The notes under the pieces were generated by a model. It was given only the letters and a program-made list of their open reading frames with translations. It did not search any database and was not told the origin of the DNA. A program made the translations under genes and the position numbers. A stretch of DNA of 32,000 nucleotides from an uncultured archaeon (GTDB lineage: Archaea > Asgardarchaeota > Thorarchaeia > Thorarchaeales > CAZPUN01). How positions within the stretch are numbered: position 1 is the stretch's first letter; the number at the start of each line of letters is the position of its first letter. Positions 3,732 through 15,042 of the stretch are shown one piece after another. Location of the stretch: the NCBI GenBank assembly GCA_964589775.1, contig CAZPUN010000023.1, positions 1 to 32,000 on the forward strand, given 5' to 3'.

Positions 3732-4106
3732 TTAAATTATTCCATATCTCCATTTTCTAATGGATACGAGTGCATAGGCAAGTCCCAAGGTTACAATTCC
3801 TAAGAATCCGCCTACAATTGCTAAAACGCCGAAATCAAGTCTGTATTGAAAGACCATCCATGAGCCCAAGAAAAGAGTAATGACATCCATTATAGCAAAA
3901 AGGATTGCGTAAATGTAATATTGATAATCAAATTGTATATGTGATGTGCCTATCGGGACTTCTCCACATTCGTATGTATCATATTTTGCTTCAGATGGGA
4001 CTCCTTTTGCTCTAGTGAGCTTAGAAGCTGTAAGCATAAGAATAGCAAATAAGGTTCCTGAACCCAACAATAGAATTACAGGCAGGAATTGTTCAAATAA
4101 TGTCAT
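3732..4106 (-). CDS. nuoA: Complex I-like subunit A (3 TM); divergent from the rest of the operon
   Basis: KYDTYECGE loop, FDYQYYIYAILFAIMD and three hydrophobic segments. ATG at 4106 preferred over TTG at 4124. Confidence 0.9.
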   Translation of the reverse strand: MTLFEQFLPVILLLGSGTLFAILMLTASKLTRAKGVPSEAKYDTYECGEVPIGTSHIQFDYQYYIYAILFAIMDVITLFLGSWMVFQYRLDFGVLAIVGGFLGIVTLGLAYALVSIRKWRYGII

Positions 4107-4124
4107 TGCTATCACTATCCACAA

Positions 4125-4286
4125 TAAAATATACTTTCAATTTTAAATATTTTGTCTGATACATTTCCATAAAAATACATATTTTTAAGTCTTTAGTTTC
4201 ATTTTTGTAAATTACATGTGGTAATGTTTATAAGATTGATAACAAATTTTCTAGCACGCTACTAAAGATAATTTAGGTGAGAAATT
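4125..4286. promoter_or_regulatory. Divergent promoter region between nuoA and nuoJ
   Basis: AT-rich gap between head-to-head genes; TATA-like TTTATAAG near 4227; AGGTGA ribosome-binding site just before the nuoJ ATG. Confidence 0.5.
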
Positions 4287-4817
4287 ATGGCTTGGTCCTT
4301 GGAATTCATCGAATTCATTATTTTAGCAGGACTAGCTATTGCTTCTGCTATACTTACATTAGAAACCCGCGAAATTATCTATGGTCTATTCTATTTTGGA
4401 ATTTTCACGATCGCTGTTGGCGGTCTTTACATATTGCTTAACGCGGGTTATCTAGCTATGTTTCAAATGGCTATTTATGCAGGGGCAGTGGTTGTTCTTG
4501 TTTTCTTCGCAATTATGCTAGTCCGAAGAAAAGAAGGAGTTCCAATGTGTTCATATCCCAGTATAAAAACAAAAGTTGGTAGTGCAATACTTAGTATTCT
4601 TCTAATTGTATTTGTGCTTTACTTTGTATTGCAATATCCATGGGTACAAGCAGTAACACTACCTGTTGTAGATCCCGGTGATATATTCTATGTTCTAATG
4701 AGTAATCAACTTCTATCCTTTGAACTAATAGCTGTATTATCTACAGCTACAATCATTGGTGGTGTTGCTTTGGTACGAAATGATATCGAAATTGAAGAAT
4801 CTGAGGAGGGTCAATAA
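4287..4817 (+). CDS. nuoJ: Complex I-like subunit J
   Basis: LNAGYLAMFQMAIYAGAVVVLVFFAIML and FELIAVL motifs; five TM segments. Confidence 0.92.
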   Translation: MAWSLEFIEFIILAGLAIASAILTLETREIIYGLFYFGIFTIAVGGLYILLNAGYLAMFQMAIYAGAVVVLVFFAIMLVRRKEGVPMCSYPSIKTKVGSAILSILLIVFVLYFVLQYPWVQAVTLPVVDPGDIFYVLMSNQLLSFELIAVLSTATIIGGVALVRNDIEIEESEEGQ

Positions 4818-12159: not shown

Positions 12160-13611
12160 ATGGAGCTAGGACTAATATCAATACTCTTACTAATTCCCTT
12201 GATTGCCGCCGTAATTGACTATGCTGGCGGTGTGAAGTCTCCCAAATTTGCCAAGTACTTTGCAATACTCACCACGACAGTAGTATTCATCTATAGCATG
12301 TATTTCCTTATGGTGTTTGATCCTACTAATGGTGGTATGCAGCTAATAGAAAGTTATGAATGGATGCCTGCATTTGGATTAACATTCTCTGTTGGTCTTG
12401 ATGGCATAAGTCTTCCATTACTATTGTTGGGTACCTTCATGACTATGATTGCAACAGCTGCATCACCTTGGATGATTCACCATCATGAAGCAGAATATTA
12501 TGGATTGATGCTATTATTTGAAGTAGGACTGTTAGGTGTCTTTGTCAGCACAAATCTAGTATTGTTCTATGTGTTCTGGGAGCTAGTCCTAGTTCCCATG
12601 TTCTTCATGATTGCAATTTGGGGAGGCCCTACAAGAAAATATGCTGCAATGAAATTCTTCATCTTTACGCATGTAGGTAGTGTGTTGATGCTTGTCAGTA
12701 TCATGGGCTTTTACTTCTTCTCAAGTCCTCATACTTTCAACATTCTACAATTATCCAATGTATTTCCAGCTGATTTGCAGTTCTGGCTTGCATTGGGTAT
12801 ATTCTTCGGTGCTGCATTCAAGCTACCTGCAGTCCCCTTCCATACATGGTTACCCGACGCACATGTGCAAGCCCCCAGTCCTGCAAGTGTACTACTTGCC
12901 GGTGTTCTGCTTAAGATGGGTGGTTATGCATTCATTCGTCTTGGTATCGGCTTAGTTCCTCAAGGTATGCTACAACTTGCACCATTCCTTGCGATCATGG
13001 GTGTGATCGGTGTATTCTATGCTGCTTATGCGGCAATGGGTCAAAAGGACATGAAGAAATTAATTGCATTTTCAAGTATTAACCACATGAGCTTTGTACT
13101 ACTTGGTGTTGCTGCCGGTACTGTAATGGGTATAGTTGGTGCAGTATTCCAAATGGTCAGCCATGGTGTAATCATCGGTATGCTCTTCCTTATTGCTGGA
13201 ATAATTCAGCATCATGCGGGTACTCGTGATATTCCAGTGCTTAAGGGACTTGGCAATTCACTACCAAAGCTTAGTCTTCTATTAATATTTGCATCATTTG
13301 CATCATTTGCTGCTCCACCGTTAAGCGGTTTCATTGCTGAATTAACTGTATTAATTGCAGCGTTAGTTGTATTCCCACAAATTTGGATTACTGTATTTGG
13401 TGCTGCAGTTACCACTGGTCTTTTCCTGTGGCTGATTATTAGAACCATTTACAGTGAGCCTGATGAGCATACTGTGAAAGTATCTCCTATTAGCAAATGG
13501 GAGTTACTTCCTGTTGCAATCTTAGTAATACCAATTGTCCTGCTGGGTCTATTCCCAGGGCTCTTGTTCGAATTGATCAAGGCTACTGCAGGACTGTTAG
13601 CGTTTAGGTAA
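12160..13611 (+). CDS. nuoM: Complex I-like subunit M
   Basis: GLDGISLPL, FYVFWELVLVPMFF, PFHTWLPDAHVQAP, GVLLKMGGY, GFIAE. Confidence 0.93.
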   Translation: MELGLISILLLIPLIAAVIDYAGGVKSPKFAKYFAILTTTVVFIYSMYFLMVFDPTNGGMQLIESYEWMPAFGLTFSVGLDGISLPLLLLGTFMTMIATAASPWMIHHHEAEYYGLMLLFEVGLLGVFVSTNLVLFYVFWELVLVPMFFMIAIWGGPTRKYAAMKFFIFTHVGSVLMLVSIMGFYFFSSPHTFNILQLSNVFPADLQFWLALGIFFGAAFKLPAVPFHTWLPDAHVQAPSPASVLLAGVLLKMGGYAFIRLGIGLVPQGMLQLAPFLAIMGVIGVFYAAYAAMGQKDMKKLIAFSSINHMSFVLLGVAAGTVMGIVGAVFQMVSHGVIIGMLFLIAGIIQHHAGTRDIPVLKGLGNSLPKLSLLLIFASFASFAAPPLSGFIAELTVLIAALVVFPQIWITVFGAAVTTGLFLWLIIRTIYSEPDEHTVKVSPISKWELLPVAILVIPIVLLGLFPGLLFELIKATAGLLAFR

Positions 13612-13623
13612 GAGGTGACGATA

Positions 13624-15042
13624 ATGGCTGCAGAATATCTATCTCTTATGCCGTTTATCACATTGTTCGGATTTGCATTAGTTTCACTTATATTCGGTGG
13701 TATCAGGAAATGTAAGATTGCTATCGGCTGGTCTGCAGTAGGTGTAATCTTAGCATTCTGGCAAACATTATTTGGTGGGTACTTTAATGGTGCCCATCTA
13801 TTCGATGATACAATAGTAATGGATGCTTTCTCCCAATTCTTTGTACTACTCTTCCTTGGTGTTGCATTTTTGATCTTAGTAGCTGCACCATACGAAATGA
13901 AAGCACGACCTGAGTTTGCTGCTTTAGTCTTGATTGCAACGATCGGTATGTCTATGGTTGCACTTGCAAACGATTTATTGGTGCTATTTGTATCATGGGA
14001 ACTAATGAGCATATCAACATACGCTTTGGCTGCTCTTGGAAAAGACAAAAAGTCCACTGAAGGTGGTATCAAATACTACCTTTACGGTATCGTTGCATCT
14101 GGTTTCATTTTGTACGCTATCTCATTGCTATATGGTATCACCGGTACTACAAATCTTACTGCAATTGTTAATTTCGTTGCAGCAAATGGTAATTTAGCTT
14201 TACCTGTCGTAGGTCTCAGTGCATTCATATTCATATTGGGCTTTGGATACAAGATGGGTGTTGTTCCCTTCCATATGTGGATTCCAGATGCATATGAAGG
14301 CGCGCCGTCTGTAATTGCAGGTCTGCTAGCTGGTGGCTCAAAGAAAGCAAGCATCGCTGCTATGTTCAGAATAATCGTTGCTGCATTACTTGTAATTAAC
14401 TTTGGCTGGACATTTACGATTGCAATAATCGCTACAATCACCATGACCTTTGGAAACTTCTTAGCTTTGAGTGAACCAAAAGTTTCCAGAATGCTTGCAT
14501 ATTCCTCAATCACACAAGTTGGATACATATTAATTGGTCTTGCAATTGCAACTACAATTGGAGTAGCAGGTGCACTATTCCAAGCTCTCACACATGCCGT
14601 CATGAAAAGTGCTGCCTTTATTGCTGCCGGAGTTGTTATTTACAAACTATCCTTAAAAACAGTGGATGACTATAATGGTTTAGTAAAGCGCATGAAGTTT
14701 GTATCCTTTGCATTGGCTATAATGTTGTTATCTCTCGCTGGTGTTCCACCGCTCGCTGGATTTATCAGTAAGTTCATTCTTTTCTCGGCAGCAGTTGATG
14801 CCGGACTTGTTTGGCTGGCCGTTGTCGGAGTGCTTAACAGTGCATTCTCCTTAGGTTATTATCTGCGTTTGATCAAAAACATGTTCGTAGAAGATGCACC
14901 TGAGGATGCTACGCCTGTCAAGGTTCCCTATGGAGTCACTATTTCATTAGCTCTTGCAGTAATTGTAATCATAGTTATGGGAATCTATCCCGCACCATTC
15001 TATGACTACATAATTCGTGCTGCACAAAGTATAATTCCGTAA
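13624..15042 (+). CDS. nuoN: Complex I-like subunit N
   Basis: STEGGIKYY, KMGVVPFHMWIPDAYEGAP, RMLAYSSI, SLAGVPPLAGFISKF, YYLR. ATG at 13624 follows GAGGTGA (GTG at 13615 is the alternative). Confidence 0.94.
   Translation: MAAEYLSLMPFITLFGFALVSLIFGGIRKCKIAIGWSAVGVILAFWQTLFGGYFNGAHLFDDTIVMDAFSQFFVLLFLGVAFLILVAAPYEMKARPEFAALVLIATIGMSMVALANDLLVLFVSWELMSISTYALAALGKDKKSTEGGIKYYLYGIVASGFILYAISLLYGITGTTNLTAIVNFVAANGNLALPVVGLSAFIFILGFGYKMGVVPFHMWIPDAYEGAPSVIAGLLAGGSKKASIAAMFRIIVAALLVINFGWTFTIAIIATITMTFGNFLALSEPKVSRMLAYSSITQVGYILIGLAIATTIGVAGALFQALTHAVMKSAAFIAAGVVIYKLSLKTVDDYNGLVKRMKFVSFALAIMLLSLAGVPPLAGFISKFILFSAAVDAGLVWLAVVGVLNSAFSLGYYLRLIKNMFVEDAPEDATPVKVPYGVTISLALAVIVIIVMGIYPAPFYDYIIRAAQSIIP

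Follow-up and report, generated by a model that had tools for sequence, protein, structure and literature searches.

What does a complex I-like enzyme with four antiporter-type subunits do in an archaeon whose genome yielded no known quinone pathway? The question is raised by twelve genes (nuoA, J, K, B, C, D, H, I, M', L, M and N, their products called A to N; Table 1) in a 32,000-nucleotide stretch, here the window, of contig C23 (CAZPUN010000023.1) from an uncultured Asgard archaeon of the order Thorarchaeales. The contig belongs to a 2.16-Mb metagenome-assembled genome (MAG) from a hydrothermal vent metagenome; the MAG is 96.75% complete, so that absences from the genome are provisional. 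A first-pass annotation had read the locus as a complex I-type membrane arm with an extra pump, joined to an MBS-like, non-NiFe, non-quinone catalytic head. Gene content and phylogeny point to a four-pump arm and to a head of a separate archaeal lineage, for which a disulfide is tentatively preferred as electron acceptor.

Gene cassette and membrane arm

All 12 open reading frames (ORFs) are intact and match the subunits first assigned to them, with one correction: nuoA is encoded on the minus strand and diverges, across a gap of 162 bp, from the remaining 11 genes (J-K-B-C-D-H-I-M'-L-M-N). In a vent metagenome that may be the source run, positions 3400–11974 and 11964–15400 are covered by two contigs with zero differences; two further runs gave only short pieces. 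The nearest D homologues are found in Asgardarchaeia and Heimdallarchaeaceae. The order of the 11 genes is repeated in an Asgardarchaeia MAG, divergent nuoA included, and in Heimdallarchaeaceae and related contigs, some of them incomplete; in Heimdallarchaeaceae nuoA comes last in the cassette, on the same strand. The cassette is also present in the closed, complete genome of Ca. Heimdallarchaeum aukensis. Because the metagenome contigs are identical and the genes recur in independent genomes, one of them circular, the cassette is not an assembly artefact. Among the homologous loci, the divergent position of nuoA is repeated in L037, L042 and L155, and four antiporter subunits in one cassette are conserved in L037, L039, L042 and L047.

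The distribution of the cassette across Asgard archaea is patchy. Its exact D type was found in only this MAG and H. aukensis among 400 Asgard genomes scanned with an alignment of D (a scan with the single D protein found nothing), and was not found in the closed genome of H. endolithica. A sister four-pump cassette occurs in an Asgard family of the same order as this MAG, here called Thor-like (Thorarchaeota-like, an inferred name). The MBH of Wu et al. was considered as the four-pump locus and rejected, since a locus with two antiporters is common to the two Heimdallarchaeum species and the one with four occurs in H. aukensis alone. Both Heimdallarchaeum genomes carry an MBS-related B-C-D-I cluster with a two-Cys D and no membrane genes nearby (L111, L112). 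In one Asgard family (L100 and L101, in G345 and G348), A-B-C-D-H-I-J-K are followed by two M-type subunits before L, and the loci end at the contig edge.

No nuoEFG, fpoF, fpoO or mrpE/F/G gene lies within the locus. The claimed absence extends to the whole genome for NuoF (PF01512) and MrpE (PF01899), which were not found, and for E. coli NuoE/F/G, which gave no tblastn match; it does not extend to FpoF, as an FpoF/FrhB-family gene is present elsewhere (C25:7239–8249).

The arm itself is of complex I type with an extra pump and no Na+ module, as annotated. The Glu of transmembrane helix (TM) 5, the Lys of TM7 and the Lys/Glu of TM12 are kept in all four antiporters. M' has Glu instead of Lys in TM8 throughout the clade, and the same TM8 Glu is seen in a hydrogenase locus carrying J-K-L-M'. 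The lateral helix of NuoL spans 79–81 residues in the clade and its Thor-like sister, compared with 51 in E. coli and 53–55 in Fpo, Nitrosocaldus and hydrogenase arms, which makes it 25 residues longer here than in three-pump arms. A lateral helix insertion of ~26 residues has been reported for 2M (four-antiporter) complexes, and also in complexes without the extra subunit (PMC9040806). Since the extension equals the 2M insertion, it supports a single four-pump arm as the predicted arrangement. A double insertion (span 107–108) is present in two other Asgard families (L099 in G141; L108, L109 and L213 in G105 and G107), one with four antiporters in the operon and the other with three seen; these could have arms with five pumps, or subunits encoded in trans.

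A quick tree places M and N in the NuoM/FpoM and NuoN/FpoN clades. M' is placed outside the NuoM clade, its neighbours being the only M of Nitrosocaldus and the M-type subunit from Asgard group 4 hydrogenases, and L groups with the same archaeal set. From these placements and the TM8 Glu of the hydrogenase M', the arm looks like an archaeal L-M' pair combined with Nuo-type M and N, rather than a fresh duplication. The physical order of the pumps would be N-M-M'-L. L was also modelled with AlphaFold from five sequences, but the quality was poor (mean pLDDT 41.5) and the model was not taken as evidence.

Headless (no NuoEFG) 2M complexes have been reported in archaea, in heterotrophic marine Thaumarchaeota (PMC7300363), and correspond to clade 2 of Chadwick et al. 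(2018), as cited in PMC7300363 and PMC9040806. They resemble the present complex in having four antiporters, no NADH module, the NuoL insertion and the tandem Cys in B. They differ in that here the two M-type subunits come from separate lineages and not from a NuoM duplication, two NiFe Cys are kept in D and a third Cys is present in B. The Thaumarchaeota concerned respire aerobically; the present host is an anaerobe, and quinone genes were not found in it. The novelty first claimed is thereby narrowed: each feature is known separately, and what the literature searched does not describe is their combination in a genome in which quinone genes were not found. A search of mostly open-access literature, with the defining 2M paper outside its scope, turned up no account of an Asgard complex that has four antiporters, a two-Cys D and CxxCC. 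In the description of Ca. H. aukensis (enriched, closed genome) no terminal electron-accepting pathway was discernible, and the main text does not name the four-pump complex (PMC8813620).

Residues and phylogeny of the catalytic head

In all nine D sequences of the clade, C64 and C356 are kept and acids stand at the other two NiFe positions (CxxE/D and CxxD). Because two of the four NiFe Cys are replaced, D is, by its residues, not a [NiFe]-hydrogenase large subunit, as the first-pass annotation had held. It is highly improbable that the complex is a group 4 [NiFe]-hydrogenase that evolves H2, like the complex I-like Asgard enzymes of Appler et al., even with H71 and R303 of the NiFe site kept beside the two Cys and with M' and L sharing ancestry with hydrogenase arms. 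A true group 4 hydrogenase is encoded separately in the genome, and the ~17 kJ of the H2-evolving reaction cannot drive five protons. The Asgard hydrogenases reported so far (bioRxiv 10.1101/2024.07.04.601786; PMC11291895) have a similar B-C-D-I head without EFG and related L and M', but their arms are shorter, with fewer antiporters, and their NiFe sites are intact, with four Cys. The separate hydrogenase is split over three loci: A-like, B (CxxC), C, H and I genes at window 28228–30921 (+), a large subunit with all four Cys at G000 C8:15822–16889, and J, K, L and two more antiporters at C23:57522–63439.

The motifs of D and B are invariant in the clade and are, as described, MBS-like or intermediate. 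C64 and C356 align with C85 and C385 of MbsL, neither of which takes part in MBS catalysis (PMC7684303). The same two Cys are retained by Methanosarcina FpoD and by an Aquificota NuoD, so that these vestigial residues are not diagnostic of MBS. In B (C21-x-x-C24-C25), C21 aligns with the non-ligand C25 of MbsJ and C24 with the ligand C28, and C24-C25 is the tandem pair of complex I. Catalysis in MBS depends on a proximal cluster bound by three Cys, with one open iron (PMC7684303). Since Cys25 fills the position where MBS has Gly, B appears to lack this defining feature. The CxxCC motif also occurs in an Aquificota nuo operon and in Peptococcaceae MBX-like operons, whose I is part of a fusion with a larger domain (L060, L063, L142).

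MBS was represented in the trees by Thermoplasmatota operons checked against 6U8Y, not by Thermococcales sequences, and labelled clade 2 2M sequences were absent. D forms its own clade (support 99/94), sister to the Thor-like group (94/75). Both lie inside a large and mainly archaeal group (97/95), together with TACK Nuo, MBS and Aquificota and without Fpo or bacterial Nuo. The grouping of D with strict MBS was rejected in the approximately unbiased (AU) test (p-AU 0.003), and that with a broader MBS-like set was not (p-AU 0.07). Against the FpoD family D scored 338 bits (cut-off 600), and it is a separate clade from FpoD. H nests with Nuo/Fpo; for B the tree decides neither for MBS (AU 0.07) nor for Nuo/Fpo (AU 0.22). 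These placements of D, H and B indicate that the head is a separate archaeal lineage with ancestral residues; it is not nested within any characterised clade, and the first-pass reading is not refuted on that score.

The evidence on the head makes it quite unlikely that the complex is an MBS-type ferredoxin:sulfane-sulfur reductase, in which polysulfide would be cleaved at the proximal cluster and one tandem Cys would dissociate upon reduction. Such an enzyme would fit the best solved-structure match of B, which is MbsJ (165 vs 154 bits), the MbsL-like CxxE/D and CxxD pattern of D, which also lacks the bacterial NuoD insertion, the broader MBS-like grouping (p=0.07 for both D and B), the MBX-like operons with CxxCC and the vent origin of the metagenome. 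P. furiosus MBS (PDB 6U8Y; PMC7684303, PMC8165549) likewise has a large subunit in which acids follow two vestigial Cys, a small subunit with an upstream non-ligand Cys and similar loop motifs, and a probable ferredoxin donor. It differs in its three-Cys catalytic cluster, with Gly in place of Cys25, two antiporters, Mrp Na+ module, gene order and divergent H, and the MBS reference operons L049 and L064 differ in the arm in the same way (Mrp-type Na+ module, two antiporters). In the present complex the open Fe site is filled, in sequence, by C25, and H, M and N are Nuo-type; ~44 kJ per 2 electrons cannot drive 5 H+ above ~92 mV. The MBS-like catalytic head first proposed is not supported in that form and is only in part correct.

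B shows MBS and complex I Cys patterns in one motif, and the arm mixes hydrogenase-type and Nuo-type pumps, which bears on the modular assembly of complex I. A putative intermediate on a hydrogenase–MBS–complex I path would fit the motifs. Four other loci (L102, L103, L104, L114) encode ~670-residue I-B-D fusion proteins with two-Cys, MBS-related D domains. In L104 and L114 the fusions are preceded by H, J, K, L and a second antiporter, and that L is without the TM5 Glu and TM12 Lys.

Electron donor, acceptor and energetics

The reading preferred here, with somewhat less than an even chance of being right, is a ferredoxin-linked proton pump with a disulfide acceptor, reached through HdrD-like proteins or a pocket in D, like headless Fpo with HdrD. 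The basis for a 12-subunit, four-pump complex is gene set, motifs, helix length and phylogeny; donor, acceptor, direction and stoichiometry are all inferred. The twelve subunits would form one membrane complex of complex I architecture, with the four antiporters held by the lengthened NuoL helix. Reduced ferredoxin, the probable donor as first suggested, would deliver electrons at I. By way of three [4Fe-4S] clusters they would reach the proximal cluster, which would have four Cys ligands, like that of complex I. Pumping, of protons and not of Na+, would then be driven by the H13/H17/E117 site together with the loops of H and A, at up to ~5 H+ per 2 electrons. The acceptor would be a heterodisulfide-type disulfide at ~-140 mV. 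Its reduction would take place either in the pocket of D, lined with Cys, or via an HdrD-like protein whose gene lies elsewhere. That extra-pump homologues of complex I move a fifth proton is a proposal treated as a hypothesis in the literature consulted.

A basic loop in I was considered as evidence of ferredoxin docking and rejected, as it does not separate the clade from E. coli NuoI. An FpoF-architecture protein in trans scored 164 bits (cut-off 475) and also occurs in H. endolithica, which is without the complex. The genome has CofE and a group 3b-like hydrogenase as well. The ATP synthase c subunit was not found in the MAG, and the coupling ion is not readable from it.

Textbook midpoint potentials were used for the energetics. 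Five H+ per 2 electrons were computed to balance at ~170 mV for ferredoxin to menaquinone, ~142 mV to heterodisulfide, ~92 mV to elemental sulfur (S0) and ~34 mV to H+. By these values, a disulfide or a quinone is a more suitable partner than sulfur or protons for a four-antiporter arm that is fully coupled. Because the ferredoxin/heterodisulfide pair would be near equilibrium with five protons, the complex could also run backwards. A CoA-disulfide reductase-like gene was considered as a sign of S0 use and rejected, its score being below its cut-off.

The nearest precedent for a disulfide acceptor is Methanomassiliicoccus, in which a headless Fpo-like complex has been proposed to pass ferredoxin electrons to HdrD (PMC7374477). 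The present complex would be analogous to this system, proposed for Methanomassiliicoccales, plus one pump. Both are without an input module, have a probable ferredoxin donor and, at the genome level, combine HdrD-like proteins (here by similarity) without HdrE with MvhADG-HdrABC; the two Cys of D are those of Methanosarcina FpoD. They differ in the number of pumps (four here vs three) and in D, which here is outside the FpoD clade and has Phe for Tyr, and the link to a partner is putative here. The genome has two HdrABC-MvhD clusters, one with MvhAG and the other with a TfrA-like flavoprotein inside, and two HdrD-like Fe-S/CCG genes, each beside an FAD-linked dehydrogenase. In the Thor-like sister, NuoB is fused to a GlcD/Dld-type FAD dehydrogenase upstream of the four-antiporter cassette (L095:16199–18193, L096:950–2890, L097:1107–3047). 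The fused protein was matched in 61 of 86 genomes of the family, mostly over its full length, and in the Thor-like genome G353 an HdrD-like gene adjoins it. The fusion ties this complex family to FAD dehydrogenase/HdrD-like modules.

Several points weigh against a disulfide-linked four-pump complex. Neither this locus nor any other of the exact clade contains a partner gene. Identity of the HdrD-like genes to the Thor partner is only 24–30%, their scores fall short of all named family cut-offs, and they may serve their own dehydrogenases; the thiol pair of the proposed acceptor (coenzyme M/coenzyme B or other) is putative. The His/His/acid residues of the quinone site and a normal NuoH are kept. 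H. aukensis, with the same complex, has MenA-like and heme-o-synthase-like prenyltransferases, which keeps a quinone in play. The helix is an imperfect pump counter, as another Asgard family spans 107 residues with an operon showing only L, M and N, and the genome, being a MAG, gives provisional absences. The heme-o-synthase-like gene of H. aukensis (L116; G055 C1:689216–689977) scored 187 bits against a cut-off of 210; no counterpart is listed in H. endolithica, the same split as for the four-pump complex.

Both His and the acid of the complex I quinone site (H13/H17/E117) are kept in D, and MBS does not keep them fully. The quinone Tyr is replaced by Phe65; as this Tyr is also absent from Nitrosocaldus NuoD, its loss is no proof of a non-quinone acceptor. 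Canonical complex I (E. coli Nuo, T. thermophilus Nqo) shares A, J, K, H, L, M, N, the tandem Cys and the two His with the acid, and differs from the present complex, which has no EFG, no quinone Tyr, an extra pump, two Cys in D and a permuted gene order with divergent nuoA. An ordinary 2M-type enzyme, in which ferredoxin or F420H2 would reduce a lipophilic carrier (menaquinone, phenazine-like or other) in the B/D/H pocket, forward or reverse, is a substantial, if somewhat unlikely, alternative. Besides the tandem Cys, the kept quinone-site residues and the Nuo-type H, it would agree with the reduction of phenazine by Fpo, whose D keeps both Cys, with the ~170 mV for menaquinone, with the MenA-like gene of H. 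aukensis and with a strong UbiE/MenG match in the Thor-like G353. In the present genome, however, no known quinone pathway was found: MenA, MenC-F, MqnA/D and a strong UbiE/MenG were not detected, nor were HdrE/NarI or NrfD membrane anchors (the search did not extend to heme-copper and bd oxidases). Weak matches to MenB and MenH are probably other family members, and the two UbiA proteins are of the DGGGP-synthase type and a decaprenyl-phosphate phosphoribosyltransferase. The non-quinone part of the earlier claim holds to the extent that the acceptor is probably no known quinone in this genome.

Chemistry in D itself is unlikely. The D pocket (C64, C356, E67, D359, H71) beside the CxxCC cluster would itself reduce or oxidise a soluble disulfide, or bind a single metal, in a quinone-free four-antiporter pump whose arm joins a hydrogenase L-M' pair and a Nuo M-N pair. 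If true, this would be a third chemistry for the complex I family, different from that of MBH (H2 site), MBS (open-iron site) and complex I (quinone site).

Operation mainly in reverse is distinctly improbable. Proton influx via the four pumps would then reduce ferredoxin from a higher-potential donor (a 2-hydroxyacid, glycerol-3-phosphate or a thiol pair), a role proposed for extra-pump complexes (PMC9040806). Lactate to ferredoxin needs ~60 kJ, or 4–5 H+, and the sister Thor complex carries the fused Dld/GlcD-type flavoprotein; this fusion is, however, absent from the exact clade, and the genome encodes alternative sources of reduced ferredoxin (2-oxoacid oxidoreductase subunits, Mvh-Hdr bifurcation). 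Should the complex conserve energy in the absence of quinones, a respiratory-type pump would be present in some Asgard archaea now read as fermenters.

Features of the locus and flanking genes

Table 1. Coordinates (window positions) and characteristics of the cassette
Feature	Position	Strand	Remarks
nuoA-like	3732..4124	-	Probable start Met near 4106; TM1-2 loop motif YECGE kept
AT-rich nuoA/nuoJ gap	4125..4286		GGTGA ribosome-binding motif just 5' of nuoJ
nuoJ-like	4287..4817	+	Full length
nuoK-like	4817..5128	+	Both conserved Glu kept
nuoB-like	5125..5583	+	C21-x-x-C24-C25: upstream Cys MBS-type, tandem Cys-Cys complex I-type
nuoC-like	5595..6053	+	Sequence match
nuoD-like	6062..7150	+	2/4 NiFe Cys kept (C64, C356), acids E67 and D359 at the other two; H71 hydrogenase-type; H13/H17/E117 complex I-type; Phe65 replaces quinone Tyr
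nuoH-like	7147..8130	+	Within Nuo/Fpo clade (100/98); acidic TM5-6 loop intact
nuoI-like	8117..8569	+	Two [4Fe-4S] motifs; probable start 8132
M', fourth antiporter-like subunit, hydrogenase/Nitrosocaldus lineage	8562..10073	+	TM5 Glu, TM7 Lys, TM12 Glu kept; TM8 Lys replaced by Glu
nuoL-like	10087..12159	+	Lateral helix span 80 residues vs 51–55 in three-pump arms
nuoM proper	12160..13611	+	NuoM/FpoM clade, SH-aLRT 100; pumping residues all kept
nuoN	13615..15042	+	NuoN/FpoN clade, SH-aLRT 98

The gap between nuoA and nuoJ probably holds the divergent promoters of the two genes. A sigma-70 scan of the gap gave no better result than shuffled sequences; the sigma-70 model does not cover archaeal promoters.

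An Lrp/AsnC-type regulator and a DASS-family anion/dicarboxylate transporter (window 15106–16798, -) converge on the end of the operon; neither was seen beside homologous cassettes. An archaeal 16S rRNA gene lies at window 20552–22053 (+), with no 23S adjoining it in the window. Its GC content of 59%, against ~37% in its surroundings, is typical of a thermophile. Just downstream of nuoA, a tRNA match of 94 bases (window 3556–3649, -) exceeds the 71 positions of the model and may contain an intron.

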